Source: Acidimicrobiia bacterium (GTDB lineage Bacteria; Actinomycetota; Acidimicrobiia; Spongiisociales; UBA5794). Taken from it: a stretch of DNA of 64,000 nt. The notes beneath the pieces are model-generated. The model was not told the origin of the DNA. It searched no databases and saw only the letters and a list, made by a program, of their open reading frames with translations. The stretch spans positions 8,730 to 72,729 of the forward strand of contig JAOZRW010000005.1 of the NCBI GenBank assembly GCA_029939995.1, written 5' to 3'. Positions 4,999 through 60,671 of this stretch are shown here, in pieces (position 1 is the stretch's first letter; each line of letters begins with the position of its first letter). A program made the translations under genes and the position numbers.

Positions 4999-5580
4999 TC
5001 AGCCCTTCTCGGTCTCGCCGGTCTTGACGGAATCGATGTCCTCACCGAGCAGGACCTGGTCGATCGTGGCGGTGAGGAGTTCGAAGGTGACCGGTCCGAT
5101 GACCTTACCCACGACGATTCCCTCTTGATTCACGAAGAACGTCTCCGGGAGCCCGGCGACGCCGTATGCGAACGCACCGCTGGAGTCGTACTCGATGCCG
5201 TAGGTCGTCACCGGGCTTTGTCCGAATCGGTCGAGGAATTCGAGCGCCAGGCCCTTCTCATCGAGCGTGTTCACCTCGAAGAACGTGACACCGAAGTCGG
5301 CGTACCGGGCCGCAGCCTCGGTCAATGCTGGATGCTCCTGACGACATCCGGTGCACCAGGAGGCCCAGAAGTTGACGACGGTGACATCTCCCAGATGATC
5401 GGAGAGCCGAACCTCGCCGTCACCAACCAGGTTCTCCATGACGAGCTCCGGTGCGGGTTTGTCGATCAGCGCGGAGCCCGTGACCGTTGGATCGGTACCG
5501 AGCGTTCCGGCGAGGGCGACCCCGATGACCATGATCACAAGGCCGACGCCGATAACGAGCCAGACGATCCGGTTACTCAC
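4999..5580 (-). CDS. ccmG: Thiol:disulfide interchange protein CcmG/DsbE (TlpA-like thioredoxin fold) for cytochrome c maturation
   Basis: N-terminal TM anchor, then NFWASWCTGCRQEHP (compare E. coli DsbE WATWCPTCRAEH); GTG start overlaps the stop of the upstream ccmI-like gene (GTGA). Confidence 0.8.
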   Translation of the reverse strand: MSNRIVWLVIGVGLVIMVIGVALAGTLGTDPTVTGSALIDKPAPELVMENLVGDGEVRLSDHLGDVTVVNFWASWCTGCRQEHPALTEAAARYADFGVTFFEVNTLDEKGLALEFLDRFGQSPVTTYGIEYDSSGAFAYGVAGLPETFFVNQEGIVVGKVIGPVTFELLTATIDQVLLGEDIDSVKTGETEKG

Positions 5581-6387: not shown

Positions 6388-6823
6388 GTTTGTCTCCTAC
6401 GGGTTCGGTGTTCTTGCGGCGGAGTCCGAAAATGGCGGCTGCGCCGATGATGAGGACTGCGACCGGGAGGGCCCACAACATGACGCCCCATCCCGTACTC
6501 GGTGGGTCGAGTAGCACCTGCTCTCCGTACGCCGCGACGAAGGAGTCGATGATTTCCTCGTCCGTCCGTCCTGCGGCGATCTCCGCGTCGATTCGGGCTC
6601 TCAAGTCCTTCGCGAGGTCCGTCTGCGATCCGGCGAGGGACTCCCCGGCGCAGATCGGGCATTTCAGGGAGATGGCCAGGTTGTACGCCCGGGCCTCCGG
6701 ATCCTCGGGCCCCGTCTCGCCGGGCCAGAGGCTGACGACGAGCACACCGAGGGCGATCACGGGCACGATCAGCCATACGAGCCCACGGCGGCGTTCAGAC
6801 ATCTGCGTTCTCTCGGTGTGCAC
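6383..6823 (-). CDS. ccmH: Cytochrome c-type biogenesis protein CcmH
   Basis: LKCPICAGESLAGSQTDLAKDLR matches CcmH LRCPxCxxxSIADS motif; N- and C-terminal TM segments. Alternative ATG at 6802 (MSERRR) would overlap the ccmF stop by 8 nt instead of 29 nt. Confidence 0.8.
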   Translation of the reverse strand: MHTERTQMSERRRGLVWLIVPVIALGVLVVSLWPGETGPEDPEARAYNLAISLKCPICAGESLAGSQTDLAKDLRARIDAEIAAGRTDEEIIDSFVAAYGEQVLLDPPSTGWGVMLWALPVAVLIIGAAAIFGLRRKNTEPVGDKQ

Positions 6824-8836
6824 GATCCTTTGACGTCACGGACCGCCTGCCGGGTTTCCTCCCGAACGCGAGAACTCCACCGGCAACGATCGTGAGGCCG
6901 CCCAGCCACAACAGCCACTGCAGCGGGAAGATCAAGACCTTCAGTCGAATCCCGTCCTCGTCGATGGCGGCGATGTTCAGGTAGACGTCGTCGATCCACG
7001 TCGTCCAGACCTGGGGCGTCGCGATCGTCTGCCCGAACTTCGGGTATTCGTGGAGCCGCGGTTCGAGGATCGCTCTCGTCGTCGTACACGACGAATCGAG
7101 GATCGCCACCCTGGCGCCCTGGACGCTCCGCGTCGGCTCCGAGCGCGTGAACGGCTCGATGTAGCCGATGCAGTAGCCCTCGACGACGGCGGTCTCCCCG
7201 ACGGCGAGTGGCACCTCGGTGCGGATCGCGAGGACGGACGTCGTAGCGATCGCCACGGCGACGAGGGCGAAACCGATGTGCGCGACCTGGCCGCCCCAGA
7301 ACCCCATGTCGTTGCGGATCGTCGACCCGAGTGCCGACGGCCACGCCTTCCCCCCTCGGTGGGCCCGATTCGACTGGTGCCCGTAGAACGCGAGGATGTT
7401 CCCGATCACGAATCCGGCGAGTCCGACGGCTGCAACCACGGTGACCGAACGGACCCCGACGAGGACGGTGACGGCTGCTGCGACGAGGCCGACGTTCAAC
7501 CCGACCCGCGTCCGCTCCCAGATGACCTTGCCGGTCGCGACCCTCCACGGCGCGGTCGATCCGAACCCCAACGCGAGGAGAACCAGGAACGCGATCGGCA
7601 CGGCGATGCGGTCGAAGAAGGGCCGACCGACGGCTACCTCCCTCCCGGTGAACGCCTCGACGAGAAGCGGGTACAGGGTTCCGAACATGACGGTGAACCC
7701 GAACAGTGTCATCAGCAGGTTGTTGAGCAGGATGAAGCCTTCGCGCGACACGAGCGAATCGAGCCGTGGAGACGACGCGACCGTGCTCGCTCGCACCGCG
7801 AACAACGCCAGCGACCCGAAGACGATGATCCCGAGGAACAGCAGCAGCAACGGCCCCACAGCGGAGACGCTGAAGGCGTGTACCGAGGCGATCACGCCCG
7901 AGCGCGTGAGGAAGGTCCCGAATATGGTGAGAGCGAACGTGATGATGACCAGCACGAAGTTCCATGCCTGGAGCATCCCCCTCCGACGCTGAACGATCGC
8001 TGAGTGGATGAATGCCGTCCCGGCCGCCCATGGAAGCAGGGCAGCGTTCTCCACCGGGTCCCACGCCCAGTAGCCGCCCCAGCCGAGGACCTCATAACTC
8101 CACCACGCTCCGAGGAGGATGCCTGCGGTCAGAAAGACCCAGGCCACGAGCGACCATCGATGGGTCCGTCCGAGCCAGACGCTCCCTCTCTCCGACCGGA
8201 AGAGCGCCGCGATCGCAAAGGCGAACGGCACGGTGAAGCCGACGTAGCCGACGTAGAGCAGCGGAGGGTGGACGGCCATCAGGATGTGGTTCGCGAGAAG
8301 CGGGTTCGGACCGATTCCGTCCAACGGCGCGGCCGTCTGGACGAACGGCAGCCACGATGTCGCGCCGCAGAAGCCGCCTGCGACGTCGGTGCAGACCTCG
8401 AACGGATTCGCGGCGGTGGCCATCAGGCCGAACCAGAACACGGCAACGGCCCCCATGACGCCGAGAGCGAGCACGCCGAGGCCGTCGCCGTTCGTGACAC
8501 CGCGCCAAACGAGCCACGTGAAGATCGCGAGCATGAGCCCCCAGAGCACGACGCTCCCGGCGAGGGCTGCCCATCCACCGGCGAGGAGGAACACGAACGG
8601 CGTATCGAGCGCCGTGTTCTTCGCGACGTACGTGATCGAGAAATCGTGCGTCAAGATCGCGAATTCGAGCAGAACGAACGCCGAGATGCCGCCGATCGTC
8701 AGGCCGATGACCGGGATCTTGAGTCGAGACGGGTCGGGGTCCGGCATTCTCGAGACCCGCCAACCCTGGATGGCGAGGGCAACGGATGATGCGAGAGCGA
8801 CGAGGATCGAGACGAATCCGGCGGAGGCGATCACGC
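6795..8836 (-). CDS. ccmF: Cytochrome c-type biogenesis heme lyase CcmF
   Basis: About 680 aa polytopic membrane protein with CcmF/NrfE-like WWD region (GWGGYWAWDPVENAALLPW) and conserved His; GTG start at 8834 overlaps the ccmE stop (GTGA). The ORF-track N-terminal 135 aa are out-of-gene read-through. Confidence 0.9.
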
Positions 8837-38518: not shown

Positions 38519-38639
38519 CGTCACGAACCCAGGGTTCTCTGCGTTGTATATGCCGTCTCCGGCCCGCGGTTCGCGAGGCCGCTCCATACCGCGGGCTCAG
38601 GACGTCAAATAGGGCGCAGAGAACCCTGGGTTCGTGACG
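38519..38639. repeat. 121-bp palindromic repeat element, copy 1
   Basis: Perfect 25-bp terminal inverted repeats CGTCACGAACCCAGGGTTCTCTGCG / CGCAGAGAACCCTGGGTTCGTGACG, each containing the 13-bp palindrome GAACCC(A/T)GGGTTC; begins 1 nt after a TGA stop, between convergent genes. Confidence 0.85.
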
Positions 38640-42811: not shown

Positions 42812-45800
42812 TCATGACAGAAGGCTGCCCACCTGCCGTATGGCCACGACCATCGCCGCGGTGTCCGACACGCCGTCCTTCCTGAGAAGGCTCATGAGCC
42901 GTGAGAGCCGTTCCTGAGCGACGGACGTGTCGGCCACGAACACGGTGAAGCCGTGCTCGACGTCACCGTCACCGGCTGCTTCGAGCACCCGCTCGACGAT
43001 CGCGCGGCGGAGGCTCATCAACTCCTGCTCGAGGCTGAGCGTCGCCCACCGTTGCCACCGGGTCTGCGATGGGAGGCTCTCGATCTGGCGCTCCAGCCAG
43101 TCGATGTGGAACACGTGGCCGACCCGGTAGAAGGCCGTTCCTGCTTCGAGAAGCGACCGTCCGGTGTTCGCCGCCACGTCGATGATGTCCGGTGCGTGCA
43201 CGAGCTCGACCTGGTAGATGTGATCCACGGCGATCCGTTCGGGGACACCCTTGTCGGTGAGCCGCCGCACCTTGCGCTCGAGACGGTTCTTCCACTGCTT
43301 CGGCCCCATCGTCCGGATCTCCTGCGAGATCTCCTCGAAGCCCGTCCCGTACCGATCGATCAGAGCGATGATCCCGCCGGTCTCGCCCCGGGCGATGAAC
43401 CAGCGGGTGAGCGTCTCGACGAGTTGGTCGACGCCGGCGAGGAGATCGATGACCACGTCGGCCGCGACCGAGCCGGCGAGCGCCTCGATCTCGCGCCAGC
43501 GCCGCGACGCACCGGCAACGCCCCGTGCCGCCCGGTACGCGCTGACGATCTCGGCCGCGCCCGCGCCCGTCTCCGCCTGCACGCGCGACACGAACGTGAT
43601 CCCCTGGGAGTTCAGCATCTCGTTCGCCACGATCGTGGCGATGAGTTGCCGTCGCAGCGGGTGCTCGAGAATCTGGGCCTGGAACCGGTTCGCGATCTCC
43701 TCCGGGAAGTACCCGGTCAGGAGGTCCTCGAAGAAGGCCATCTCCGGCAGCTCCGAATCGACGAGCTCGTCGACGAGGTGCCGTTTCGCGTACGCGAGCA
43801 GAACGGCCAGCTCCGGTCGCGCCATCCCCCGCCCGGCGCGCATGCGATCGAAGATCACCTCGGTCGAGGGAAGCACCTCGATCTCCCGGTCGAGCCCCGC
43901 TTCCGCCTCGAGACGTGCCATGAGGTCTTCGTACGCTTCCATGCGCCCGCTCGACACGGCCGCTTCCTGCGAGAGGATCTGCGCCTGTTGGAAGTTGTCG
44001 TACACGATCGCCGCGACCACGTCGTCCGATACCGATCCGATGAGCGTGTTGCGCTCCTCGCGCGTCAACTCCCCGGATCGCTCGGCCATCCGGAGCAGGA
44101 TCTTCAGATTGACCTCCCGATCCGAACAGTGCACGCCTCCGCTGTTGTCGATGAAATCGGTGAAGATCCGCCCGCCGGCCCGGTCGTACTCGATGCGACC
44201 CGCCTGGGTGAATCCGAGGTTCCCTCCCTCGCCGACGACCCGGCACCGGAGCTCGCGGCCGTTGACGCGAACGGCGTCGTTCGACCGGTCTTGCGCGTCT
44301 TCGTTCGTCTCCGTCGACGCCTTGACGTAGGTTCCGATACCGCCGTTCCAGAGCAGATCGACGGGTGCGAGCAGGATCGCGGAGATGAGTTCGGTCGGTG
44401 TCATCGCGTCGTCGGTGGTGCCCAGAGCGGATTTCATCTCGTCGGTGAGATCGATCCGCTTCAGCGACCGGGGGAACACGCCTCCACCCGGGGAGATCAC
44501 GCTCCGGTCGTAGTCGTCCCATGAGGAACGTCCGAGCGCGGCGAGCCGCTCGCGCTCGGCGAACGAACGCTCGGGATCGGGGTCGGGATCGATGAAGATG
44601 TGCCGGTGATCGAACGCGGCGATCAGCTTGATCGTGCGGGACAGGAGCATCCCGTTGCCGAAGACGTCGCCCGACATGTCCCCGACGCCGACGACCGTGA
44701 ACGGATCCGTCTCGATGTCGAGGTCCAGATCCATGAAGTGCCGGCGAACGGATTCCCATGCTCCGCGCGCCGTGATGCCGAGCGCCTTGTGGTCGTACCC
44801 GGATGACCCGCCCGACGCGAACGCGTCGTCGAGCCAGAAGTCGACGTCGGCGGCGATCGCGTTCGCCATGTCCGAGAACGTGGCCGTCCCCCGGTCCGCC
44901 GCTACGACGAAGTAGGGGTCGTCACCGTCGAGCACCCGGACGCCCGTGGGGTGCACGACGTTGCCGCCGTCGAGATTGTCGGTGATGTCGAGCAGCGACC
45001 GGATGAACGTCCGGTATCCGCTCTTCACTTCGTCGAACGTCGGACCGGTCGAAGGGTCGGCCACGGTGCGTATCACGAACCCGCCCTTCGCCCCCGTTGG
45101 GACGATCACGGCGTTCTTCGTCATCTGCGCCTTCATGAGGCCCAGCACTTCGGTGCGATAGTCCTCCCGTCTCACCGACCAGCGGATCCCTCCGCGGGCT
45201 ACCGGTCCGCCGCGGAGATGGACGCCGGCGACGGCGGGAGCGAAGACGAAGATCTCGTACATCGGCCGCGGGTCCGGGATGTCCGGGACCCGGTCCGACA
45301 GGAACTTGAACGCGATCGCTCCGTTGCCGATGAACGCGGTCGTTCGGACCGTGGCATTGATCAAACCGAGGAACGCCCGGAGGATCCGGTCTTCATCGAG
45401 CGAAGCGACCGCATCGAGACGTTCGATCAACGAGCCTCTGAGCTCCTCCTCCTCCGTCTCGTCCGCATCGGGACCGAACCTCAACTCGAACAGCCGGACG
45501 AGATCACCGGTGATGTCGGGATGCGCCGCGAACGCCGCAGCGACGTAGGGCTTCGAGAACGCCGGGTTCACCAGGTGCCAGTACGAACGGTACGCCCGCA
45601 GGATGTTGATCTGACGGTGGTCGAGATCGGTCAGTATCAGCAGCCTGCTGAGACCATCCGACTCGGTTTCACCCAGGAGCGCCGCGGTGAGCGCCGCGGC
45701 GACCCGGACCCCGCAGGCGTCGACGTCGACCTGATTCCCGTCGGATCCGAGAACGCCGAAGTCGTGCAGGTACATCTCGTCGTCACCGTCGCCCGACAGG

Positions 45801-47527
45801 CGCGTGGGAATCTCCTCGACGACACGCAGCCCCATGTTCTCGACGAGCGGCAGCATCTCGGAGAGGTCCCGCTTCCCCTCCCTGCTGTAGATCATGATCC
45901 GGGTGAGGCGCTCCTCCGACTCCGTCTCGTTGCGGATCCCGATCCGGATGGGATCGCGGCTCGACAGGATGGCGTCCACGTCGAGGACGGAGCTCGCTGC
46001 GCCCTCGAGGGAAGTCGACGACTTGAAGTACGCCGGGTAGCGGTGAGCGTGCGTGTCGATCAGCGCCCGCGCCGCCGGTTGGCCCATCGTCTGCGCCAGC
46101 AACCGGCAGACCCGATCCTCCCACGTTCGTGTCAGCGAGTAGACGTCCCGCTCGAGATCGTCGAGAGAGACGGTAGGAATCGCACCCTCGAGCCAGACCG
46201 TGAAATGGATCCGCGCATCCCCCGTCTCGCCGAGCGTCAGCTGGTAGTCGATCGACGCGCCGCCGTACCTCTCGAGGAAGAGATCCTGGAGGTTCTTGCG
46301 AAGGTTCGTGTCGAATCGATCCCGCGGGATCACGACGAGGATGGAGACGTTGCGGTGCAGGACGTCGCGCCGCACGAACAACCGGACGTGCTGATGCTCC
46401 TCCGCTTCGAGAAGACCGACGAGGCTCGTCCGCAAGTCGTCCTGGCTGATGCTGAACAGTTCGTCCTTGGGGAACGATTCGAAGATCTGGCTGATGACCT
46501 TGTAGTCGTGGGATCCCTCGATCAGATCTTCCGCCGACAGCACGTTCGCCAGCTTCCGTCGGAGGATCGGGATGGTGGCGGTCACCGCCATGTACGCCTT
46601 GGACGTGAAGAGACCGACCAGCCGTGCCTCACCTTTCGGCGTTCCGTCGGCGTGGACGCGACGGAGACCGATGTAGTCCATGCGTGCGTCCCGGTGCACG
46701 GTGGATCGGCGGTTGGTCTTCGCGATGACGAGTTGGCGGCCGTGCTCGTATCGATCCCGGAGATCCGGTTCGAGCGAGGCGAGCGGAACCGGCTCGGCGA
46801 ACCGGCTCGCATCGGCATCCTCGAGGATCCCCAGACCGCTGCCCTCTTTCACGGCGATTGCCGGTCCGTCACCGGTGTCGGCGATGTCGTACTCGCGGTA
46901 GCCCAGCAGGATGAAGTTGTCATCGAGAAGCCACTCGAGGAACGCGACCGCTTCTTCGACATCGTCCGGATCGAAGGCCGAGCCGTCTTCGAACGCGTAG
47001 TGCACCATGCGTCGCACGGCGAAACGCATCGGTTCGAAATCCTTGACGGCGGCCCGCACGTCGGCGAGCGTCGCAAGCAGCTCGGTCTCGAGCGTCGACG
47101 CTTCCTCGGAAGAGAGCGTCTCGACGAGCTCGTAGTGCTGCACCGACTCGCGCCGGCTCGCTCCCTTGCCCGCAGCGACCTCGATCAGCGCCCCGTTCTC
47201 GCCGCGGACGGTCCCCACGACCGGGTGGAAGTGCCGGACGGTCGTGTAGCCGAGCCTCGCGAGCCGGGACATGACGGAGTCGACGAGGAACGGCATGTCG
47301 TCGGTGACGATCTCGATGACGGATCCGGGCGTCGAGTAGCCGCAGGTCTCGGGGGTCGGGTCGAAGACTCGTACGGCGAGGGTCGATGCCCCGCGGCCGT
47401 CGAGGAAGCCGTACGCGCAGCTGATCTCCGCCGAGAGCTGATCGGGTCCGATCGTCGGTTCCTCGTCGTCCGGAACCCGGTGCAGATAGGCGCTGGCGAA
47501 CGCTTCGAGGGATTCAGAGCGACCCAT
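42812..47527 (-). CDS. gdhB: NAD-specific glutamate dehydrogenase, large (about 1,570 aa) GdhB / Bac_GDH type
   Basis: Full-length match in architecture to the L-180 NAD-GDH class; likely ATG at 47527 with AAGGAG 8 nt upstream (ORF track extends to 47593). Confidence 0.9.
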   Translation of the reverse strand: MGRSESLEAFASAYLHRVPDDEEPTIGPDQLSAEISCAYGFLDGRGASTLAVRVFDPTPETCGYSTPGSVIEIVTDDMPFLVDSVMSRLARLGYTTVRHFHPVVGTVRGENGALIEVAAGKGASRRESVQHYELVETLSSEEASTLETELLATLADVRAAVKDFEPMRFAVRRMVHYAFEDGSAFDPDDVEEAVAFLEWLLDDNFILLGYREYDIADTGDGPAIAVKEGSGLGILEDADASRFAEPVPLASLEPDLRDRYEHGRQLVIAKTNRRSTVHRDARMDYIGLRRVHADGTPKGEARLVGLFTSKAYMAVTATIPILRRKLANVLSAEDLIEGSHDYKVISQIFESFPKDELFSISQDDLRTSLVGLLEAEEHQHVRLFVRRDVLHRNVSILVVIPRDRFDTNLRKNLQDLFLERYGGASIDYQLTLGETGDARIHFTVWLEGAIPTVSLDDLERDVYSLTRTWEDRVCRLLAQTMGQPAARALIDTHAHRYPAYFKSSTSLEGAASSVLDVDAILSSRDPIRIGIRNETESEERLTRIMIYSREGKRDLSEMLPLVENMGLRVVEEIPTRLSGDGDDEMYLHDFGVLGSDGNQVDVDACGVRVAAALTAALLGETESDGLSRLLILTDLDHRQINILRAYRSYWHLVNPAFSKPYVAAAFAAHPDITGDLVRLFELRFGPDADETEEEELRGSLIERLDAVASLDEDRILRAFLGLINATVRTTAFIGNGAIAFKFLSDRVPDIPDPRPMYEIFVFAPAVAGVHLRGGPVARGGIRWSVRREDYRTEVLGLMKAQMTKNAVIVPTGAKGGFVIRTVADPSTGPTFDEVKSGYRTFIRSLLDITDNLDGGNVVHPTGVRVLDGDDPYFVVAADRGTATFSDMANAIAADVDFWLDDAFASGGSSGYDHKALGITARGAWESVRRHFMDLDLDIETDPFTVVGVGDMSGDVFGNGMLLSRTIKLIAAFDHRHIFIDPDPDPERSFAERERLAALGRSSWDDYDRSVISPGGGVFPRSLKRIDLTDEMKSALGTTDDAMTPTELISAILLAPVDLLWNGGIGTYVKASTETNEDAQDRSNDAVRVNGRELRCRVVGEGGNLGFTQAGRIEYDRAGGRIFTDFIDNSGGVHCSDREVNLKILLRMAERSGELTREERNTLIGSVSDDVVAAIVYDNFQQAQILSQEAAVSSGRMEAYEDLMARLEAEAGLDREIEVLPSTEVIFDRMRAGRGMARPELAVLLAYAKRHLVDELVDSELPEMAFFEDLLTGYFPEEIANRFQAQILEHPLRRQLIATIVANEMLNSQGITFVSRVQAETGAGAAEIVSAYRAARGVAGASRRWREIEALAGSVAADVVIDLLAGVDQLVETLTRWFIARGETGGIIALIDRYGTGFEEISQEIRTMGPKQWKNRLERKVRRLTDKGVPERIAVDHIYQVELVHAPDIIDVAANTGRSLLEAGTAFYRVGHVFHIDWLERQIESLPSQTRWQRWATLSLEQELMSLRRAIVERVLEAAGDGDVEHGFTVFVADTSVAQERLSRLMSLLRKDGVSDTAAMVVAIRQVGSLLS

Positions 47528-47654
47528 TTCGAGGTCTCCTTGGATGGCGAGAAGATGAGGATACCCCTGTGAGCAGCGAGCCTCTGTTGCCACGCCGGGC
47601 GAATCTTGCGAACCGTCGGCCCTAATCTCTCACGCCCCGACCCAAGGAGGGCCG

Positions 47655-51440: not shown

Positions 51441-51561
51441 CGTCACGAACCCAGGGTTCTCTGCGTTGTATATGCCGTCTCCGGCCCGCGGTTCGCGAGG
51501 CCGCTCCATACCGCGGGCTCAGGACGTCAAATAGGGCGCAGAGAACCCTGGGTTCGTGACG
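51441..51561. repeat. 121-bp palindromic repeat element, copy 2 (identical to copy 1)
   Basis: Same sequence as 38519..38639 over its full length as read by eye; begins 2 nt after the nfnB TAA stop, between convergent genes. Confidence 0.85.
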
Positions 51562-53046: not shown

Positions 53047-53283
53047 CTACCGCACGCTCCGCCCGAACCCGATCTTCCCGGTCAACTTCCACAGCCCCAA
53101 TCCGGTGGCGATTCCAGCGACGACGGCGAGAACGGCCGACGCGATCAGCAGCCCCGGTTCGGCGTAGCCCGGCCACGGGTCGTCGCCGAACACGTACAGC
53201 CAGAACACGCCCGCGCCGAAGACGACGGAGCCGGCGCCGACGGCCGCCGCGGCGGCAAGTCCGCCGAAAGCGACGATGAACAT
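53047..53283 (-). CDS. Small two-TM membrane protein (hypothetical)
   Basis: MFIVAFGGLAAAAAVGAGSVVFGAGVFWLYVF...LLIASAVLAVVAGIATGLGLW; 10 nt upstream of the LLM gene. Confidence 0.35.
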   Translation of the reverse strand: MFIVAFGGLAAAAAVGAGSVVFGAGVFWLYVFGDDPWPGYAEPGLLIASAVLAVVAGIATGLGLWKLTGKIGFGRSVR

Positions 53284-53352
53284 TCGAAGGATTTTCACAC
53301 CGACGAGCCTATTGCCGGATTCTGGGGCCGTGAGAGTTGGTAGCGTGGCGGT

Positions 53353-54240
53353 ATGGAACTCTATGCACGCGTCAATATCCTCGACGGCAAAGCCGTCCGC
53401 CTTCCGCACGGAACCCTCGACGAGGTCATCTACCTCGACGCCGACCCGGTCGCCCGGTCGCTCGGGTGGATCGCTCAGGGCGCCGATCGCCTCCACATCG
53501 TGGACCTCGACGCCGCCATCAACGGCGACTACAAGAACCGGCCGCTCATCCGCGAGATCATCGCCGAGATCGGAGTTCCCGTGCAGGTCGGCGGAGGCGT
53601 TCGCTCCCACCTCGAGGTCGATCGCCTCCTCGATGCCGGGGCCTGGCGGGTCGTCATGGGAACCGTGGCCGTCACCGACCAGGTGCTCTTCTGGGAGATC
53701 TGTCGGGCACATCCGGGAAGGATCGCCGTCAGCCTGGACGTCAACGAAGAGCTCGAACTGGTGACGCAGGGATGGCAGCACGGATCGGGACGCTACCTCG
53801 AGGAAACGCTGATCGAACTCGCTTCGGCCGGAGCCGCGGCCTATCTCATCGCCGAGGTCGGTCGCGATGCGCTCGCCGAGTCCCCCAACTTCGAAGCGCT
53901 TCGCATCGCAACGTCGCTCGTCGACGAGGACGTCGTCGCCGCCGGCGGTGTGCGCGACCTCGATGACATTCGCGAACTGCTGAAGATCAAGGAGCACGAC
54001 AAGCGGGTCGCCGGGCTGATCGTCGGGCGCGAGGTCACGTCCGGCCGCTTCACCGTGGAGGACGCTCAGGCTCTGATGAAGGGCGCGGCGAAAGATCTCG
54101 GCCCGTGGTCCCTCGAGCAACTCGAGGAAGAAGTGGCCGCGTATCAGCGGATCCTCGCCGACGCCGGGGATCACGACGTCGCGATGACGATCGAGCACGT
54201 CGAAGGGTTCGTCCGCTGGTTGAGCGGCGGCACGCCCTGA
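53353..54240 (+). CDS. HisA/PriA-family (beta-alpha)8 isomerase-like protein with a C-terminal extension
   Basis: MELYARVNILDGKAVRL...VIYLDAD...LHIVDLDAA...VQVGGGVRS matches the HisA/HisF fold N-terminus; about 50 extra C-terminal residues. Confidence 0.7.
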   Translation: MELYARVNILDGKAVRLPHGTLDEVIYLDADPVARSLGWIAQGADRLHIVDLDAAINGDYKNRPLIREIIAEIGVPVQVGGGVRSHLEVDRLLDAGAWRVVMGTVAVTDQVLFWEICRAHPGRIAVSLDVNEELELVTQGWQHGSGRYLEETLIELASAGAAAYLIAEVGRDALAESPNFEALRIATSLVDEDVVAAGGVRDLDDIRELLKIKEHDKRVAGLIVGREVTSGRFTVEDAQALMKGAAKDLGPWSLEQLEEEVAAYQRILADAGDHDVAMTIEHVEGFVRWLSGGTP

Positions 54241-54493: not shown

Positions 54494-57400
54494 TCATCCG
54501 CCGGCTCCCGGCGGCACCAACTCCTGCCATGTCGGAACGTGAATCTCCCCGGCGATGATCCGTGCCTTCATCGTCTCGAGATCGGCAACGATGTCGTCGA
54601 TGTAGCCGCCGCTCGTTGAGTAGCCGACGCCGTCGTTCGCCAGGTTGAAGATTCGCTTGCCGGGTGTGAACGTTCCATTCGCGTAGTCCTCGAGCGCCAC
54701 ATACATCGCCGTGTCGGTTCGCTTCAGCATCGAGGACAACACATGTGGCTGCAGCTCCACGAGCCTCTTGGGTTCATAGGGCGGCAGCACGTCGGTGAGC
54801 CACATCACCCCCGGGTCGCTCCAGTTCAGATACGAGTCGGCGTCGACCCCGATCATCCACCGGTGAACTCCGGTCTCATCGGTCACGTCTTTCGCCGTGT
54901 ATGCGACGCCGATGCCCGAATCCCCCGCTGCCGGGTAGATCACGTCGACTCCGCTCTCGTAGAGTTCCCGGGCGTGGATCGCCGCAAGCGCCGGAGACTG
55001 GTAACCGGATATGTCCGGCCACTGGGTGAGGTAGATCGACGTGATCTCGATCGTCGGATCGACGTATCTGGCGCCCGCTTCGAAGCCCGCCCGGAAATCC
55101 CAGATCGGCGGCATATCGACCCCGCCGATGAACCCGATCTTGCCCGTCTCGGTCTTCAACGCGGCGATCGCTCCGACGAGGAACGAACCCTCGTTGGCCG
55201 CGAAGACGGCGAACGACACGTTCGGTCGCGCGTCGATCAACTCCTGGTCGGGTTCGATGTCGAGTACGACGAAGTCGATCTCCGGATGATCGAGGGCCGT
55301 TTGCATCGAACTGTCGGTGAGAAGTCCTCCCCATCCGAGCAGTGCGAGATCCGGGCTGCTTTCGACGATCTCGTTCAGTCCGAGTCCGATATCCGCGGCC
55401 GCCACGACTCCGTGCTCGATGCCGAAGTCCGCTGCTGCACGCTCGACGCCGGAGAGCATCTGGACATCCCAAGCGCCACCCTTCCCCTCGTAGCCGAACA
55501 TGACGGACGGAGGACGGTTCGCGATCGCCGTGACGACAACGAACGTGATGACCGCAGCGAGAGCAACGACGGCAGCGAGCATGCCCCAGAGCCTCACCCG
55601 CGCGCGCCGTGCGGCCTTCGACTCCCGTTCTCGGCGCTGAGCTTCTGCTCGATCAGCTTCGATTCGGGCCGCCGTGCTCGTCGCCAGGTATGTAGAAGCG
55701 CTCGGAGGCAGGGCGATCGAAGACGATTCGTGCCACGCCTCGTAGTCCGCCAATCGTGCTCCGGTGAGGAGGTAGCCGGGGGCGCGTCCGGCCGTCTCCC
55801 ATTCCATGGCACTCGCTAGCAGTCCGTCGAGTTGCACAAGGTCGAACCGTGCTTCTTCGAGCCAGCCCGCGAGACGGCTCCACGCGGAGAGCAGCGCCTC
55901 GTGGGACACCTCGACGGTCGCCGCACCGGTCTGCGAGTCCCGGTCGAAGGTGAGGAGCCTCTCCGCTCCGAACCGCGTGAGGATGGTCGACACCCGCACG
56001 GCCTCTCCCATGGATTCGAGTTCGAGCACCGGCACCGGACGGCGCGTATGTCGACCACCGGCGGGTTTCACGAGACGGAGGAACACGTCACGAGCGGTCT
56101 CTTGCTCGTCCGGATCGAGCGATTCGTACACCGCGTCCGCTCGTCGACCGAGTGCACCGGCGAGGCCCCCGACGTGGCGGTATCCGTCGAGCGTCATCAC
56201 CGAGTTGTCGCGTCCGTCGAAGAGTTCGGTCAGCGTGTACTGGAAGAGCGGCAGCGCACCGGGTTGGTCCGTCATGTCTGAAACCAGTTGAGCGAGTAGG
56301 TCGGGAGCGAATCCAACCCCGACTCGCTGGGCCGGTTCCACGGCGGCGGCTTCGATTCCGGCGGCGGTCAGAGGGAGCACGTTGACCACGTTCTCGGCGA
56401 ACAGCTTTGCGAACTCCGGGTAGAGCAAGGGCCGGTCGTAGAAGTCGGCGCGGACCGTCACCAGGACCCTGATACGTCCCCGTGGCTCTTCAGCGGCGGT
56501 AATCAGATTCCTCAGGAACGCCCGACGGGACGCTTCATCGGTGAGCGTGAAGAGCTCCTCGAACTGGTCGACGACGAGCAGCATCAGCCCGGTGTCGGTC
56601 CGGATCGATCGCAGGATCGATCGCGTGATCGAAGCGTCGTCGGTCGGATCGCTCGCTGATGTCGCCGACCCGGCCGCATCCCGCATCGCGGCGTCGAACG
56701 CGGCGAACGGGTACCGGCCCGGCATGAGCACCGCGATCGTCCAATCATGTGACCCGCTGCGCTCCCCCGCACGCAGAGCCGGGATGAGACCGGCGCGCAC
56801 GGCGCTCGATTTCCCCGATCCGCTCGGCCCCACAACCGCGGTGAAGGGCGCGGTCGTCGCGTCGAGAAGTCTCCGGATGAGCCGGTCACGGCCGAAGAAG
56901 TCGGTCGCATCGGCTTCACCGAACGCTCGCAGGCCCTTGTAAGGATTCCGTTCTGCACCCCGTCGGGCCGATGTCGTCGCCGTCGGCGTGGCCAGTGAAG
57001 GGTCTCTGAGCAGGATCTGCTCTTCGAGACGCAGCAACTCCGGGGACGGCTCGAGGCCCGTCTCCTCGGCGAGCGTGTCTCGATAGTCCCGGAAGACGCG
57101 CAACGACTCGGCCTGCCGACCACCTGCGAACAGCGCGAGCATCAGCAGTCGTCTCGGTTCTTCACTCAAGGGGTCGCGAGCCACCGCATCGCGCAGCATG
57201 GCTACCGCCTCGAGCGGTGTCCCCGCCTGAACCTGCGATTCGCACAGGATCGCCACCGCCCGCTGTCGCATCTCCTCGAGACGCCGGATCTCACGCTGGG
57301 CGAACTCGTCGTAAGCGAAGTCCGCGAGGGGTGGACCCCGCCACAACGCGATCGCCTCGGCCGCCAGGGACGCAGCCGTCTCTCGATCGCCGCCGCGCTG

Positions 57401-57733
57401 CGCATCGGCTGCGTCACCGACGAGACGCTCGAACCTGCGGGCATCAACCTCCTCGGAGTCGACCCGAAGCTCGTATCCGGGGCGGCGAGTGAGTATGACT
57501 TCGCCGTCATCGTCGAGCGCTTTTCGCAGTTCGGAGACGTAGATCTGGACGGAGTGTCCCGCCGTGCGGGGCGGACTCTCTCCCCAGATGAGTTCAATCA
57601 GGCGATCGGTGGAGATGACTTCGTTCGCGTGGAGGATCAGGACGGCCAGGAGCGCTCGCTGCTTGGGGGCTCCGAGCTCGATCGGAACCCCGTCGTCCAT
57701 GACCTCGATCGGACCGAGGATCCGGAACTCCAT
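54494..57733 (-). CDS. Membrane-spanning one-component regulator: SARP (winged-helix + BTAD) + STAND-type P-loop NTPase + single TM + extracytoplasmic BMP/PnrA-family ligand-binding domain
   Basis: ATG at 57733. N-terminal FRILGPIEV...RALLAVLIL... (OmpR/SARP wHTH) and BTAD; Walker A AVVGPSGSGKSSAVRAGLIPAL; TM LWGMLAAVVALAAVITFVVVTAI; C-terminal BMP motifs NEGSFLVGAIAA, KIGFIGGVDMPPI, VDVIYPAAGDSGIGV, WMIGVDADSY, LSSMLKRTDTAMY. Confidence 0.8.
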   Translation of the reverse strand: MEFRILGPIEVMDDGVPIELGAPKQRALLAVLILHANEVISTDRLIELIWGESPPRTAGHSVQIYVSELRKALDDDGEVILTRRPGYELRVDSEEVDARRFERLVGDAADAQRGGDRETAASLAAEAIALWRGPPLADFAYDEFAQREIRRLEEMRQRAVAILCESQVQAGTPLEAVAMLRDAVARDPLSEEPRRLLMLALFAGGRQAESLRVFRDYRDTLAEETGLEPSPELLRLEEQILLRDPSLATPTATTSARRGAERNPYKGLRAFGEADATDFFGRDRLIRRLLDATTAPFTAVVGPSGSGKSSAVRAGLIPALRAGERSGSHDWTIAVLMPGRYPFAAFDAAMRDAAGSATSASDPTDDASITRSILRSIRTDTGLMLLVVDQFEELFTLTDEASRRAFLRNLITAAEEPRGRIRVLVTVRADFYDRPLLYPEFAKLFAENVVNVLPLTAAGIEAAAVEPAQRVGVGFAPDLLAQLVSDMTDQPGALPLFQYTLTELFDGRDNSVMTLDGYRHVGGLAGALGRRADAVYESLDPDEQETARDVFLRLVKPAGGRHTRRPVPVLELESMGEAVRVSTILTRFGAERLLTFDRDSQTGAATVEVSHEALLSAWSRLAGWLEEARFDLVQLDGLLASAMEWETAGRAPGYLLTGARLADYEAWHESSSIALPPSASTYLATSTAARIEADRAEAQRRERESKAARRARVRLWGMLAAVVALAAVITFVVVTAIANRPPSVMFGYEGKGGAWDVQMLSGVERAAADFGIEHGVVAAADIGLGLNEIVESSPDLALLGWGGLLTDSSMQTALDHPEIDFVVLDIEPDQELIDARPNVSFAVFAANEGSFLVGAIAALKTETGKIGFIGGVDMPPIWDFRAGFEAGARYVDPTIEITSIYLTQWPDISGYQSPALAAIHARELYESGVDVIYPAAGDSGIGVAYTAKDVTDETGVHRWMIGVDADSYLNWSDPGVMWLTDVLPPYEPKRLVELQPHVLSSMLKRTDTAMYVALEDYANGTFTPGKRIFNLANDGVGYSTSGGYIDDIVADLETMKARIIAGEIHVPTWQELVPPGAGG

Positions 57734-57879
57734 GTGGTGTCCCCTCGATCTCTCCGGTATCGGTGGTTCCAACCCTACGCGCCCTGCCACACGTCTCCAG
57801 GACCTATTCGCGTTCGTCGGTCACGTCGCCCGGACGCGACGGAGAGGCCCGCCGGAACGGGCCCCTCCGTGTTCGCCCG

Positions 57880-58614
57880 TCAACCGCCGAGGCTCTCCCG
57901 GTAGAGACCCTCGTAGTGGTCGACCATCGCGGCCGCCCTTCGCGCAGCGATCTGCTCGGGCGAGTCCGCCCATGCTGCTTCATGCAACGCCGGCAACTCC
58001 GCGCCGCGCAGGGCCGCGATTCCCTCGGGCGTCCCTGCGAACTGCGCTGCGTACAAGGCCGGCAGTTCGGCGAACCGCAACTGGGCGATGTCCACGGCGG
58101 ACGGTTCGTACGCCGCGGCATGCAACGCCGGCAACTCCGCAGCCCGTGCGCCTGCGATGCCCTCCGGTGTCGCGAGCCACTCGGCTCGGAAGTGGTCGAC
58201 CATGGCTTCGGCCCTCATGTAGGCGATACCTTCAGGGGACGAAAGCCAGCCGGCCTCGTGGAGAGCCGGCAGCTCGGCGGCCCGCATGACGGCGACGCCT
58301 TCCGGTGTGGAGGCGAACCCGGTCTCGTAGAGACCCGGCAGTTCCGCGGCTCGCAGTGCGGCCACGTTGGCCGGATCGGCGAGCCAGCGGGATTCCTCGT
58401 AGGCCACCATGTCGGCCGCCCGGATCGAAGCGATGTCCGACGCACTCAACGTGTTGGCTGTTTCATTCGGGTTCAACACGAGATAGGCGATCCATCCGGC
58501 GACGACACCGATGACGACGGCTCCCAACACGCTCGCGACGCGTCGACCCGTGCTGAGTCTCCGTGCCGGGCGCGTAATCGCCGTGTCTCCGATCTGATGT
58601 TGGAGTGTTCTCAC
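57880..58614 (-). CDS. Membrane-anchored tandem-repeat protein (about 8 repeats of about 20 aa, core AELPALHEAxWxxSPEGIA)
   Basis: GTG start with AGGAGG RBS; N-terminal TM helix, then degenerate repeats ...AALRAAELPGLYETGFASTPEGVAVMRAAELPALHEAGWLSSPEGIA... Confidence 0.5.
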   Translation of the reverse strand: MRTLQHQIGDTAITRPARRLSTGRRVASVLGAVVIGVVAGWIAYLVLNPNETANTLSASDIASIRAADMVAYEESRWLADPANVAALRAAELPGLYETGFASTPEGVAVMRAAELPALHEAGWLSSPEGIAYMRAEAMVDHFRAEWLATPEGIAGARAAELPALHAAAYEPSAVDIAQLRFAELPALYAAQFAGTPEGIAALRGAELPALHEAAWADSPEQIAARRAAAMVDHYEGLYRESLGG

Positions 58615-58707
58615 GTCCGCCTCCTTCCGATTGCTCCGGCGGTCTGCCCCGAACATCGCGTACCGTCCTCAAGGAAGCCTGAAGACCCGCTCTAGTTCCG
58701 CTCTACC

Positions 58708-58821
58708 CGACACGAACCCTGGGTTCTCTGCGTCCTATGTGCCGTCTCCGGCCCGCGGTTCGCCGGGCGCGTTGAACCGCGGGCCGGAGACGGCACATAC
58801 GGGGTCACGAACCCTGGGTAT
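58708..58821. repeat. Palindromic repeat element, copy 3 (divergent variant with a perfect 24-bp internal hairpin)
   Basis: Left end CGACACGAACCCTGGGTTCTCTGCG (2 substitutions vs copies 1-2), shared core TGCCGTCTCCGGCCCGCGGTTCGC; internal perfect inverted repeat TGTGCCGTCTCCGGCCCGCGGTTC / GAACCGCGGGCCGGAGACGGCACA; right end CACGAACCCTGGGTA. Confidence 0.75.
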
Positions 58822-58847
58822 GGCGATCGGGGGGATACGCTTGCCGC

Positions 58848-60671
58848 ATGTCCTCCCCCTCCTTTCGGAACGTCGCGCTGATCGCGCACGTCGATCACGG
58901 CAAAACCACCCTCGTCGATGCCATGCTCGGCGCCACCGGTGTGTTCGGTTCGCACGAGACCCGCGTCGATCGGGTCATGGATTCGAGCGATCAGGAGCGC
59001 GAACGCGGTATCACCATCCTCGCCAAGGCGGCGTCGGTGACCTGGAGGGGCACGAAGATCAATCTCGTGGACACTCCGGGGCACGCCGACTTCGGCGGTG
59101 AGGTCGAACGCGCCCTCACGCTCGTCGACGGTGTCCTCCTCCTCGTCGACGCGGCGGAAGGCCCGATGCCGCAGACGCGATACGTCCTGTCGAAGGCGCT
59201 CGACCAGGGTCTCCCCGCGGTCGTCGTGATCAACAAGGTCGATCGATCGGACGCTCGCATCGACGAGGTCGTCGACGAGATCTACCAGCTGTTCTTCGAT
59301 CTGGACGCCGAGGACCGGCACATCGAGTTCCCCATCATCTCCTCGATCGCCCGCTTCGGGCGCTCGATGGTCGGCACCGGGATCCCGGGAGAGGACACGG
59401 ATCTCGCCCCGCTCCTCGACGCGATCGTCGAGACGATCCCCGAACCGTCGGGCGACCCCACGGCCCCGCTCCAGGCGCTCGTGACCAACCTCGACGCCTC
59501 CGAGTATCTGGGTCGGCTCGCCATCGGGAGGGTCGTGCAGGGGACGTTGAAAGCCGGAACCCAGGTCGCGTTGTGCCATGCGAATGACGAAGAGCCCCCG
59601 ATCAAGCGGCGGCTCAGCCAACTGATGGGTTTCGAAAATCTCGGCCGGGTCGAGGTCGACGACCGCGTCGCGGGGGACCTCTTCGTCGTCGCCGGTTTCC
59701 CCGAGGTCGAGATCGGAGACACGATCGCCGACGCGATGGACCCGCAGCCGCTTCCGCGGCTTCAGGTCGACGAGCCGGTGCTGCGCATGACGTTCGGCGT
59801 GAACACATCACCTCTCTCCGGAAGAGACGGCCGCTTCGTGACGTCCCGCCAGATCAAGGAGCGTCTCGATCGCGAAGTGCTGGGCAACGTCTCGATCCGT
59901 ATCGGGGCAACCTCCTCCCCGGAGATCATCGAGGTCGCCGGGCGGGGCGAGCTTCAGCTCGCCGTCTTGATCGAATCCATGCGCCGGGAAGGCTACGAGC
60001 TCCAGGTCTCCCGACCCGAGGTGATCATCCGCGAGGTCGACGGACGTCCTCACGAACCGGTCGAGCGGGCCGTCGTCGACGTGCCGAACGAGCACGTCGG
60101 CACCGTCACCCAGGCGGCGGCGCCGCGCAAGGGGCAGATCACGGATCTCCGCCCGGGTGACACCGGTCGGACCATCGTGACGCTGACCGCCCCGGCACGC
60201 GGACTCCTCGGTTTCCGCTCGCTCCTCATGACCGCCACCCGCGGCACCGCCCTCATCCATCAGCATCACGCCGGCTGGATGCCCTGGGCGGGAGAGTTGC
60301 CCCATCGCCAGGGCGGAGCCATGGTCGCCGACCGGATCGGGACGTCGACGGGGTTCGCCCTCGACAACCTCCAGAAACGCGGCGAGCTGTTCATCGGCCC
60401 CAACACCGACGTCTATGAGGGGATGATCATCGGCGAAGCGTCCCGTCCCGAGGACATGCAGGTCAATCCGACCAAGACCAAGCAACTCACGAACATCCGG
60501 ACACACTCCACCGACGAGGCCATCAAGCTGAAGCCACCGCGGGAGATGACCCTCGAACTCGCGATCGAATGGATCTCCGGTGACGAACTCGTCGAGATCA
60601 CGCCGAAGGCTATCCGCGTGCGGAAGCGCTACCTGACCGAGGGCGAACGCAAACGACGGAAGAAGCTCTGA
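58848..60671 (+). CDS. typA: Translational GTPase TypA/BipA
   Basis: [40 protein letters not shown]; 607 aa. Confidence 0.95.

Follow-up and report, generated by a model that had tools for sequence, protein, structure and literature searches.

A gene for a regulatory protein of 1,079 amino acids was identified on the minus strand of the window, as we call the whole 64-kb stretch of DNA that was analysed. The open reading frame is real; it starts with an ATG codon at position 57733, which is preceded by the Shine-Dalgarno-like sequence GAGGGG, and ends with a stop codon at positions 54494-54496. Upstream of the regulator gene were a GC-rich hairpin, a gene for a small membrane protein and a predicted SARP-dependent promoter (Table 1).

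Table 1. Features of the regulator locus, in coordinates of the window.
Feature	Coordinates	Strand	Evidence or status
Regulator CDS, SARP-nSTAND1-TM-Bmp, 1,079 aa + stop	54494..57733	-	ORF, Pfam, 120 best homologues alike
OmpR-type winged-helix DNA-binding domain, aa 22-87	57473..57670	-	Pfam Trans_reg_C 2e-12
BTAD helical activation domain, aa 96-241	57011..57448	-	Pfam 4e-36
nSTAND1 P-loop NTPase, aa 264-652	55778..56944	-	Pfam PF20703 3e-111, 378/379 profile positions
Charged juxtamembrane stalk helix, aa 677-711, running into the TM helix	55601..55705	-	AF2 model
Single transmembrane helix, aa 712-737, LWGMLAAVVALAAVITFVVVTAIANR	55523..55600	-	KD19, flanking charge, position conserved in homologues
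Extracytoplasmic (predicted) Bmp/PnrA-type Venus-flytrap domain, aa 755-1068	54530..55471	-	Pfam PF02608 2e-38
GC-rich hairpin, terminator- or attenuator-like, in the gap between the small gene and the regulator gene	57839..57870	-	dG -41.4 kcal/mol, z -3.6
Small single-pass membrane protein gene, 244 aa, GTG 58614, SD GGAAGGAGG	57880..58614	-	Predicted direct target
Predicted SARP-dependent promoter	58652..58705	-	Repeats and -10-like hexamer, unique in window
Repeats R1 TAGAGCGG, R2 TAGAGCGG and weak R3	R1 58705-58698; R2 58694-58687; R3 from 58683	-	Predicted promoter
Repeat R4 TTGAGGA, 8-nt spacer, -10-like GATGTT	R4 58672-58666; GATGTT 58657-58652	-	Predicted promoter

The original prediction had described a protein of four parts, a SARP module, a STAND NTPase, one transmembrane helix and a Bmp domain, and the Pfam domain calls and the hydropathy profile agree with this description, including the position of the Bmp domain on the C-terminal side of the helix. 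All of the motif strings that had been quoted in its support were found in the translation. The 120 best homologues listed were 44% to 99% identical to the regulator and 1018 to 1320 amino acids long; all of them contained the BTAD, nSTAND1 and Bmp domains, and all except one N-terminally partial entry contained Trans_reg_C. Since these homologues carry the fusion at full length, a frameshift or an assembly artefact was rejected as its source, and the regulator and the Bmp domain belong to one gene rather than to two frameshifted neighbours. The architecture and fold of the regulator are established. It appears to be a conserved actinobacterial protein that senses a small molecule outside the cell and switches on the adjoining gene for a small membrane protein.

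The SARP head and the nSTAND1 NTPase

The N-terminus has the domain order of the SARP family, an OmpR-type winged helix followed by BTAD. In Foldseek comparisons, the winged helix matched AfsR (8k60) with a TM-score of 0.89 and 38% to 39% identity, and sequence matches of the SARP head in the PDB were to AfsR (1e-38) and EmbR (1.5e-35). The base-contacting residues T88 and R92 of AfsR align with I64 and E68 in the regulator. Similarity to CadC was confined to the winged helix (3.5e-05).

AfsR and the other large SARPs of Streptomyces (SARP-NB-ARC-TPR) likewise consist of an OmpR-type winged helix and BTAD, followed by a STAND-class NTPase and a sensor. However, large SARPs are soluble proteins with an NB-ARC domain and C-terminal TPRs, whereas the regulator has an nSTAND1 domain, no TPRs, a transmembrane helix and a predicted extracytoplasmic PBP-type sensor, and it falls outside the large SARPs. 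The NCBIfam AfsR model aligned only to aa 2-294, with a score of 179 against a cut-off of 1430, and the sole TPR match (TPR_19, 0.073) was located inside BTAD. Unlike the genes for AfsR and the large SARPs, the regulator gene lies outside any biosynthetic cluster.

The NTPase domain is full-length and contains a Walker A motif, GPSGSGKSS, at aa 302-310 and a Walker B motif, LLVVDQFEE, at aa 385-393. Both motifs, together with R428 and H611-E612, were invariant across 67 to 121 sequences; the columns of the Walker A motif followed the pattern GPSG[SC]GKSS, and D389 and E392 were likewise invariant. As judged from these alignments, conservation of the NTPase motifs is established. Structural matches of the NTPase in Foldseek were Apaf-1-ADP, CED-4 and ORC/Cdc6, and the NACHT profile gave an E-value of only 0.037. 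The assignment to the STAND class that had been made earlier is thus retained, and the type can be specified as nSTAND1, which is neither NB-ARC nor NACHT.

In relatives of this NTPase the sensor may be WD40, PQQ or SBP_bac_1 and the output a cyclase, a kinase or TIR, and Pfam calls on a sample of 7 proteins placed SBP_bac_1 domains or PQQ propellers at the sensor position of sister proteins. A profile search of genome contigs with the full-length alignment and a generic Walker A pattern recovered at least 10 loci, among which nSTAND1-TM-WD40 relatives surfaced, with no full architecture among the matches listed. The nSTAND1 proteins of conflict systems (Kaur, Iyer, Burroughs and Aravind 2021) belong to the same NTPase clade and share the layout of NTPase, helix and sensor. 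In the described members the effectors serve death or immunity (TIR, caspase, trypsin, EADs) and the sensors are repeats, whereas the output of the regulator is a transcription factor and its sensor a solute-binding domain.

Membrane topology and the Bmp sensor domain

The regulator contains only one hydrophobic segment, with a Kyte-Doolittle 19-residue maximum of 2.84 at aa 719-737. The helix is flanked by 8 K/R residues on the N-terminal side and 2 on the C-terminal side, and the corresponding means over the 120 best homologues listed were 7.05 and 0.99. In the full-length AF2 model, helices were predicted at aa 677-723 and 727-738, with an R/K-rich stretch ahead of the transmembrane segment. 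The confidence of the model was low for aa 716-737 and its pTM was 0.49, so the inter-domain geometry is not given by it. Using local HMMs and hydropathy, a hydrophobic helix was also found after the NTPase in 144 of the 150 closest nSTAND1 representatives, which were the best of 16,900 cluster representatives matching at E <= 1e-30. This indicates that a membrane-spanning STAND arrangement is family-wide and not peculiar to the regulator gene.

From the hydropathy, the charge bias and the lipoprotein relatives of the sensor, we infer an N-in/C-out topology, in line with the extracytoplasmic C-terminal sensor that had been proposed. The regulator might instead be wholly cytoplasmic, with a helix that does not span the membrane and a PBP-fold sensor for an intracellular ligand, as in LacI/GalR. 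We consider this extremely improbable given the length of the apolar stretch (about 26 residues), the strong positive-inside asymmetry across the homologues, the recurrence of the helix in the nSTAND1 representatives, the presence of lipobox-bearing lipoproteins among the nearest relatives of the sensor and the occurrence of SBP_bac_1 at the same position in paralogous architectures.

The sensor has the two-lobe type-I PBP fold of the Bmp family and is 37% to 48% identical to stand-alone Bmp proteins. A search of metagenome contigs with the Bmp alignment returned mostly stand-alone substrate-binding proteins and two full fused loci (L020 and L035), and these served as a comparison set. Lipoboxes were present in all six stand-alone relatives whose N-termini were examined, and all three that were scanned for their surroundings lay in Bmp-ABC operons, one of which also contained a gene for pyrimidine-nucleoside phosphorylase. 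In contrast to these proteins and to the nucleoside-binding ABC lipoproteins PnrA/TmpC, BmpD, BmpA and Lbp, the regulator has no lipobox, no signal peptide and no ABC operon; its Bmp domain is held by an internal transmembrane anchor and fused to a regulator.

The pocket of the sensor also departs from these lipoproteins. D825, F880, D964 and K1004, which match Asp98, Phe151, Asp225 and Lys242 of BmpA (PMC13325309), were nearly invariant and retained in both the fused and the stand-alone proteins. The N-lobe motif D...SFND (D747, S754, F755, N756, D757), on the other hand, was invariant in 20 of 20 stand-alone relatives and lost or variable in the fused family. D747 was kept in none of 20 fused sequences, the query having G at this position, and F755-N756, which is variable across the fused family, is replaced by W-D in the query. 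According to the roles assigned to the residues of the nucleoside pocket (PMC13325309, PMC7093131), the ribose contacts are retained and the motif for base recognition is lost or variable, which makes a canonical nucleoside a doubtful ligand. The same doubt applies to the purine nucleosides named in the original prediction, and the pocket of the fused family could be degenerate rather than retuned.

The similarity of the sensor to genuine ABC substrate-binding lipoproteins is also compatible with a role as a tethered substrate-binding protein. The regulator would then dock on a Bmp-type ABC importer whose genes lie elsewhere and report transport flux instead of free ligand, in the manner of a trigger-transporter or of the co-sensing of CadC with LysP. 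A link of this kind had been presumed from the start, with the importer as the regulatory target. However, neither ABC permease nor ATPase genes adjoined the regulator gene in the window or at any of the nine other independent fused loci examined in detail, there was no further Bmp gene within the window, and the SARP box precedes the gene for a small membrane protein rather than a transporter gene. The importer was therefore rejected as neighbour and target, and we regard docking on a distant importer as quite improbable.

The predicted SARP promoter and the linked small gene

The sequence TWGAGC-N5-TWGAGC had a single occurrence in the window, immediately 5' of the gene for the small membrane protein (expected 0.00), and this was still the sole match when up to one mismatch was allowed (expected 0.26). 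It was found in 12 of the 101 fetched loci, all of which were regulator loci with the site on the strand of the regulator gene; the approximately 74 stand-alone Bmp loci had no match. Every fused locus examined had T(A/T)GAGC direct repeats in phase (0/+11/+33 nt), located 5' of an adjacent gene for a small exported or membrane protein or of the regulator gene itself. At 9 of the 12 sites the repeats started at 0, 11, (22) and 33 nt and were followed by an 8-nt spacer and a NANNNT hexamer, whereas R4 and the -10 hexamer were not recognisable at the other 3 (the upstream site in L005, L099 and L046).

[quoted passage not shown] The predicted promoter follows this spacing in sequence, with phased direct repeats of which the last is 8 bp from the -10 element, as for AfsR and the large SARPs. 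A scan for sigma-70 consensus promoters returned none, as expected for a high-GC actinobacterium and for a SARP promoter that lacks a -35 element. The winged helix was the most conserved domain of the family (mean identity to the query 0.68), which fits the conservation of the SARP box. By its sequence, a conserved SARP-type promoter adjoins the regulator gene, and the gene for the small membrane protein is its predicted target.

In the small protein, a single transmembrane helix precedes about nine repeats of 23 aa, RAAELPxLYxxxxxxTPEGIAxx. Comparable genes for small membrane-anchored proteins were located upstream in L001, L003, L004, L035, L096, L100 and L101. The proteins linked to the regulator in L005 and L046 were unrelated secreted proteins, so the linked proteins are not homologous across all loci, and no Pfam family was found for any of them. 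Hairpins equivalent to that between the two genes in the window were present in L003, L100, L001 and L004, conserved in position and not in sequence, and Rfam gave only sub-threshold chance matches on the palindrome within 57600-58950.

The Bmp domain may have ceased to bind a small molecule. It would instead be an outside module for protein interaction or self-association that binds, for example, the repeats of the small protein, forming a pair with feedback like ToxR/ToxS or VtrA/VtrC. This is unlikely in our view, because the near invariance of D964, K1004, D825 and F880 argues for a kept ligand pocket, the linked proteins differ among loci and only 3 homologues of the small protein in the window were found.

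Several of the fused loci adjoined mobile or defence-like genes (PIN, HNH, restriction-modification, integrase or phage-collar genes), and sister nSTAND1 proteins carry TIR, trypsin and kinase effectors. As nSTAND1 was defined in counter-invader systems (PMC8195603) and the putative induced product is a small single-pass membrane protein, the regulator might sense a cue from an invader and induce a membrane-active protein that arrests or kills the cell. Yet PADLOC gave P-loop-level matches only for the regulator, and an extracytoplasmic solute-binding fold would be an odd phage sensor. Furthermore, synteny of housekeeping genes (bipA, hisF-like, gdh), with 56% to 68% protein identity, is common to the window, L003 and L100, and this implies vertical inheritance. 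A role in defence is thus very improbable.

Proposed mechanism and relation to known regulators

We consider it fairly probable that the regulator is, as a whole, a type-II (N-in, C-out) single-pass membrane receptor with its transcription factor in the same protein. The outer Venus-flytrap domain would bind a small ligand, probably one containing a ribosyl or polyol group and not a canonical nucleoside. Closing of the domain, or a change in its self-association upon ligand binding, would be transmitted through the transmembrane helix and the long charged stalk to the cytoplasmic nSTAND1 domain, where relief of autoinhibition would allow ADP-to-ATP exchange and oligomerisation, as in other STAND switches. 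The oligomer would set several SARP domains side by side, enabling them to fill the four T(A/T)GAGC repeats in helical phase, which stand in for the -35 region of the neighbouring promoter, and to recruit RNA polymerase. The small membrane protein with its presumed extracytoplasmic repeats would be the output, possibly together with the regulator itself by read-through past the hairpin. Of these steps, we infer that a ligand is bound, that the signal is coupled across the membrane, that oligomerisation depends on NTP and that the promoter is activated and not repressed. We know of no precedent for a single transmembrane helix that drives a STAND switch.

ToxR, CadC, TcpP and VtrA similarly have an N-terminal cytoplasmic OmpR-type winged helix, one transmembrane helix and an extracytoplasmic sensor, a target promoter beside the regulator gene and a linked small single-pass partner (compare ToxS and VtrC). 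The regulator differs from them by about 620 additional cytoplasmic residues between head and membrane, which comprise BTAD and the 390-aa STAND NTPase, an enzymatic module that ToxR-like proteins lack; its sensor fold is unrelated and its host is an actinobacterium. The one-component logic originally likened to ToxR, with the winged helix inside and the sensor outside, is borne out, and the regulator works like ToxR-type regulators but is not a member of the group.

Med, deposited as a "transcriptional activator of comK gene", is a Bmp-fold lipoprotein that is a separate protein and works via other regulators, whereas the domain is here covalently joined to the transcription factor. The resemblance to BT1754 and other sensor kinases fused to periplasmic PBPs is an analogy only, as the output is STAND-gated direct DNA binding rather than a kinase or cyclase. 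The same applies to the natriuretic-peptide receptor guanylyl cyclases, which have an extracellular PBP domain and one transmembrane helix.

No paper was found that combined BTAD with Bmp, or SARP with NB-ARC and a transmembrane segment, or that described a membrane-spanning SARP, in agreement with the original prediction that the combination is not a described class, and the nSTAND1 literature found dealt with conflict systems only. A 2024 review of SARPs recognises only the small, medium, large and SARP-LAL classes, and the word "membrane" is absent from it. The combination is already present in public databases under automatic names (JGI: "basic membrane lipoprotein Med.../DNA-binding SARP").

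SARP and STAND regulators have been treated as soluble cytoplasmic proteins, and their activating signals are mostly unknown. The solute-binding sensor can be produced on its own for ligand screening, and the output is a defined promoter adjoining the gene, so that the trigger of a large SARP/STAND protein becomes directly testable. The binding domain, the switch and the SARP box are modular parts that could serve as actinobacterial biosensors. If the mechanism is correct, a single protein would link an extracellular chemical directly to transcription in Actinomycetota and unite ToxR-like logic with ATP-gated oligomerisation.

It is also conceivable, with the balance falling just short of even, that the nSTAND1 proteins overall are transmembrane NLR-like receptors, forming a large class that has gone unrecognised, with an NTP-gated switch inside, a sensor outside and interchangeable outputs. 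The sensors of such a class would be WD40 or PQQ propellers, Bmp and SBP_bac_1, and its outputs SARP, nucleotide cyclase, Ser/Thr kinase, TIR and protease; SARP-nSTAND1-TM-Bmp would be its most tractable member because of its small-molecule-type sensor and readable promoter output. Should the helix indeed cross the membrane, NLR-like switches with sensing outside the cell would be common in bacteria, with a bearing on the evolution of STAND and NLR proteins.

Architecture and membrane topology of the regulator

The original prediction of a four-part regulator was correct in its coordinates, with the gene on the minus strand, and all of the quoted motifs were found in the translated sequence. 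Pfam recovered the domains Trans_reg_C, BTAD, nSTAND1 and Bmp, with one hydrophobic helix located before Bmp, so that the Bmp fold was placed C-terminal to the helix as had been proposed. Since the NTPase was assigned to nSTAND1, it represents neither an NB-ARC nor a NACHT domain. The NCBI AfsR model matched the SARP head only, with a score of 179 against a cut-off of 1430.

Features of the regulator, the adjacent small gene and the predicted SARP boxes (L-numbers refer to fetched homologue and comparison loci)
Feature	Position	Strand	Details
Regulator CDS, 1,079 aa	54494-57733 (ATG 57733, stop 54494-54496)	minus	GAGGGG precedes ATG
Trans_reg_C	aa 22-87		Pfam 2e-12
BTAD	aa 96-241		Pfam 4e-36
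nSTAND1 (PF20703)	aa 264-652		Pfam 3e-111, 378/379 profile positions covered
Apolar run	aa 712-737		Kyte-Doolittle 19-residue maximum 2.84 at aa 719-737
Bmp (PF02608)	aa 755-1068		Pfam 2e-38
Small gene, 244 aa	57880-58614 (GTG 58614)	regulator's strand	SD GGAAGGAGG conserved with L003 and L100
TWGAGC-N5-TWGAGC, window	58689-58705	minus	expected 0.00
SARP boxes, L005	13238-13290; 9893-9911
SARP box, L046	1170-1186

The full-length structural model had a pLDDT of 90.1, with low confidence confined to the linker between the SARP head and the NTPase and to aa 716-737, whereas a pTM of 0.49 means that the relative geometry of the domains is not fixed by the model. Foldseek searches with this model matched the head to AfsR and EmbR (TM-score 0.89), and the NTPase to Apaf-1-ADP, CED-4 and ORC/Cdc6. 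A helix that was continuous from residue 677 to 723, followed by a helix at 727 to 738, appears in the model as a charged stalk running into the apolar helix.

The apolar run was the one strongly hydrophobic segment in the protein, and was preceded by 8 lysine or arginine residues in 20 positions and followed by 2. The position of the helix was kept in 120 homologues, in which the mean number of flanking lysines and arginines was 7.05 on the N side versus 0.99 on the C side. In the most likely reading, the regulator crosses the membrane once in an N-in/C-out orientation and serves as both receptor and transcription factor. Next to this hydropathy and charge asymmetry, and even with the low model confidence at the helix, a non-membrane protein is a very improbable reading.

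A fused family on a modular nSTAND1 scaffold

A search of 5.8 billion proteins yielded homologues of which the 120 best were listed, with 44% to 99% identity and lengths of 1018 to 1320 aa. BTAD, nSTAND1 and Bmp were present in all 120, and Trans_reg_C in all except the N-terminally partial P0022. This common domain set rules out that the fusion is an artefact. The sources of the 120 proteins were MAGs of Actinomycetota, Acidimicrobiia and Actinomycetia, together with cultured Nitriliruptor alkaliphilus. In alignments of the homologues, the Walker A motif (GPSG[SC]GKSS), the Walker B residues D389 and E392, R428 and H611/E612 were invariant, and the wHTH was the most highly conserved domain across the family.

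When aa 264-740 were used in a profile-free search of 1.84 billion cluster representatives, 45,814 matched at E <= 1e-3 and 16,900 at E <= 1e-30. In 144 of the best 150 of these, the NTPase was immediately followed by a hydrophobic helix (KD19 >= 1.6), flanked by 6.7 versus 2.4 lysines and arginines; of the 150, 72 had a SARP head, 33 a Bmp tail and 27 both. The relatives sampled included SARP-nSTAND1-TM proteins with WD40, PQQ_2, SBP_bac_1 or short unknown tails, as well as Guanylate_cyc-nSTAND1-TM-Bmp, and genomic relatives with WD40 tails carried Pkinase+LuxR, SARP+Pkinase, trypsin, TIR or HTH heads. The recurrent helix and the variety of heads and tails indicate that the membrane-spanning STAND layout is a clade-wide modular scaffold, of which the regulator is the SARP/Bmp combination.

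We also noted that the homologous proteins P0125, P0128 and P0154 had the sister architectures adenylate/guanylate cyclase-nSTAND1-TM-Bmp and SARP-nSTAND1-TM-SBP_bac_1, so that outputs and solute-binding sensors are evidently swapped on one scaffold. A protein with SARP, Ser/Thr kinase, nSTAND1 and TM segments was encoded at 4932-8792 of locus L007 (Ilumatobacteraceae MAG); its C-terminal reading frame decays into low-complexity sequence, which may be due to an assembly frameshift.

The sensor pocket

The sensor alignment retrieved 80 loci from metagenomes, and the majority encoded stand-alone Bmp proteins with 37% to 48% identity to the sensor. A lipobox was present in all six stand-alone proteins for which the N-terminus was read, and an ABC ATPase gene was located downstream in the three stand-alone loci scanned, with permease genes confirmed in two; one locus (L059) also contained a pyrimidine-nucleoside phosphorylase gene. 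The regulator differs from such transport proteins in having neither a lipobox nor an ABC operon. Detailed reading of 10 independent fused loci revealed no gene for a Bmp-type ABC permease or ATPase next to the regulator in any of them, and a second Bmp gene was likewise lacking from the window. The suggestion that a neighbouring Bmp-type transporter is the regulatory target was therefore not borne out, and the possibility that the regulator, with its Bmp sensor, acts as a co-sensor with a distant ABC importer appears quite unlikely.

The N-lobe motif D-x-G-G-R-G-x-S-F-N-D was invariant in 20 of 20 stand-alone proteins. In the fused family the Asp at 747 was missing in 20 of 20, position 755 was W, F, I or L, and position 756 was G, N, D or S; the regulator itself has G747, W755 and D756. 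D825, F880, D964 and K1004 were kept in both groups and align with Asp98, Phe151, Asp225 and Lys242 of BmpA, which are conserved pocket residues (PMC13325309; for pocket details of PnrA and BmpD, see PMC7093131). Their retention indicates that the ribose-binding half of the pocket has been kept, whereas comparison of the aligned residues suggests retuning or relaxation of the base-specifying half. It is accordingly doubtful that the ligand is a standard nucleoside, and so is the purine nucleoside originally suggested. The altered N-lobe motif could also reflect a degenerate pocket used for contact with a protein, perhaps, in a ToxS-like arrangement, the small protein encoded upstream; given the retained ribose-contacting residues, this seems unlikely.

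A predicted SARP promoter and its putative target

The genes surrounding the regulator in the window were housekeeping genes (a hisF-like gene, a luciferase-like monooxygenase, cytochrome c, a GltD-like gene, NAD-GDH, bipA and azlC), in a synteny common to L003 (68% identity) and L100 (56%) and absent from more distant homologue loci. The NAD-specific glutamate dehydrogenase (42812-47593, minus strand) is an ordinary protein of 1,593 aa with ACT1-3 domains, conserved in L003. A 383-aa ORF at 53047-54198 on the minus strand had no Pfam match, overlapped the His_biosynth gene (53353-54240, plus strand) and is probably a spurious high-GC ORF.

The recurrent neighbour was a small gene without a Pfam family, located directly upstream on the same strand. 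In its product in the window, an R-rich tail and one TM helix are combined with about nine repeats of 23 aa that follow the pattern RAAELPxLYxxxxxxTPEGIA. Upstream of the regulator in L001, L003, L004, L035, L096, L100 and L101, analogous proteins were encoded that have a single TM helix and a helical ectodomain rich in W and Y. A stable GC hairpin followed the small gene in five of five folded loci (dG -31 to -51 kcal/mol, z -3.2 to -4.8), conserved in position and not in sequence.

Upstream of the small gene in the window the sense strand reads TAGAGCGGaacTAGAGCGGgtcTTCAGGCTtccTTGAGGAcggtacgcGATGTT, and other loci were arranged alike. The match to TWGAGC-N5-TWGAGC was the only one in the 64-kb window, also with one mismatch allowed (expected 0.26). 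The motif was matched in 12 of 101 fetched loci, all with a fused regulator and always on its strand; neither the roughly 74 stand-alone Bmp loci nor the other nSTAND1 loci fetched gave a match. In 9 of 12 sites, two T[AT]GAGC repeats (R1 and R2) were 11 nt apart, followed by a weak R3 at +22, R4 (T[TC]GAG[CG]) at +33, an 8-nt spacer and a hexamer whose second base is A and whose sixth is T. The layout of this predicted box matches the published SARP promoter rule, which requires a distance of 11 or 22 bp between repeats and of 8 bp between the 3' repeat and the -10, with the first 8 bp of an 11-bp repeat being contacted by each protomer (PMC10936776); heptamer repeats have also been described (PMC10972967). 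The base-contacting T88 and R92 of AfsR align with I64 and E68, which fits a different repeat sequence.

The gene order of regulator and putative target varies, since the box in L005 and L046 was located just downstream of the regulator, before a gene for a small protein, which is secreted in L005 (156 aa, signal peptide present) and anchored in L046 (signal peptide and C-terminal anchor). In L099 and at the second L005 site, the box directly preceded the regulator itself. Genes for an ECF sigma factor and a 303-aa single-TM, anti-sigma-like protein without a Pfam family were located immediately upstream of the regulator in L099 (3336-4792), with the box between this pair and the regulator, and the 363-nt gap upstream of the regulator in L005 contained a tRNA-like sequence.

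Immediately upstream of the box in the window was a 109-nt near-perfect palindrome (58711-58819; 46-nt arms, RNA dG -83.9 kcal/mol, z -9.9), and copies of the 14-nt direct repeat CACGAACCCTGGGT flanked it. Its arm recurred with 1 mismatch at intergenic positions 38550-38572 and 51472-51494 (expected 0). The palindrome, which neither of the syntenic loci L003 and L100 contained, resembles a dispersed element of the REP or MITE kind.

The architecture, the fold, the conserved motifs, the asymmetry in charge and hydropathy, and the promoter layout, which occurred exclusively with this family, were observed directly, and the dynamic steps are inferred from them. In the mechanism we consider most likely, ligand binding by the outside flytrap would be relayed to the nSTAND1 switch along the TM and stalk helix, and ADP-to-ATP exchange and oligomerisation would align the SARP heads on the four phased repeats, with strong R1 and R2 upstream and weaker R3 and R4 in place of the -35. 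RNA polymerase would be recruited and the small membrane protein expressed, and the regulator might itself be expressed more strongly through read-through past the hairpin. The nSTAND1 papers found in the literature searches deal with conflict systems only, but such a system, with an output toxic to the membrane, is decidedly improbable for a gene among housekeeping neighbours.

The predicted likeness to ToxR-style one-component devices held for the logic, in that the regulator would work like ToxR and CadC, but the inserted STAND module sets it apart from ToxR-like regulators. It shares its SARP head with AfsR but differs from the large SARPs in lacking NB-ARC and TPR domains and in not being soluble. 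The classes in a 2024 SARP review were limited to small, medium, large and SARP-LAL, with no mention of a membrane, and targeted literature searches gave no description of the SARP-nSTAND1-TM-Bmp combination. The claim of an undescribed combination thus stands for the literature, but the class is not wholly new, since database entries carry automatic names (at JGI, 'basic membrane lipoprotein Med.../DNA-binding SARP') and each module is of a known kind. It is of interest because its sensor and its output both lend themselves to experiment.
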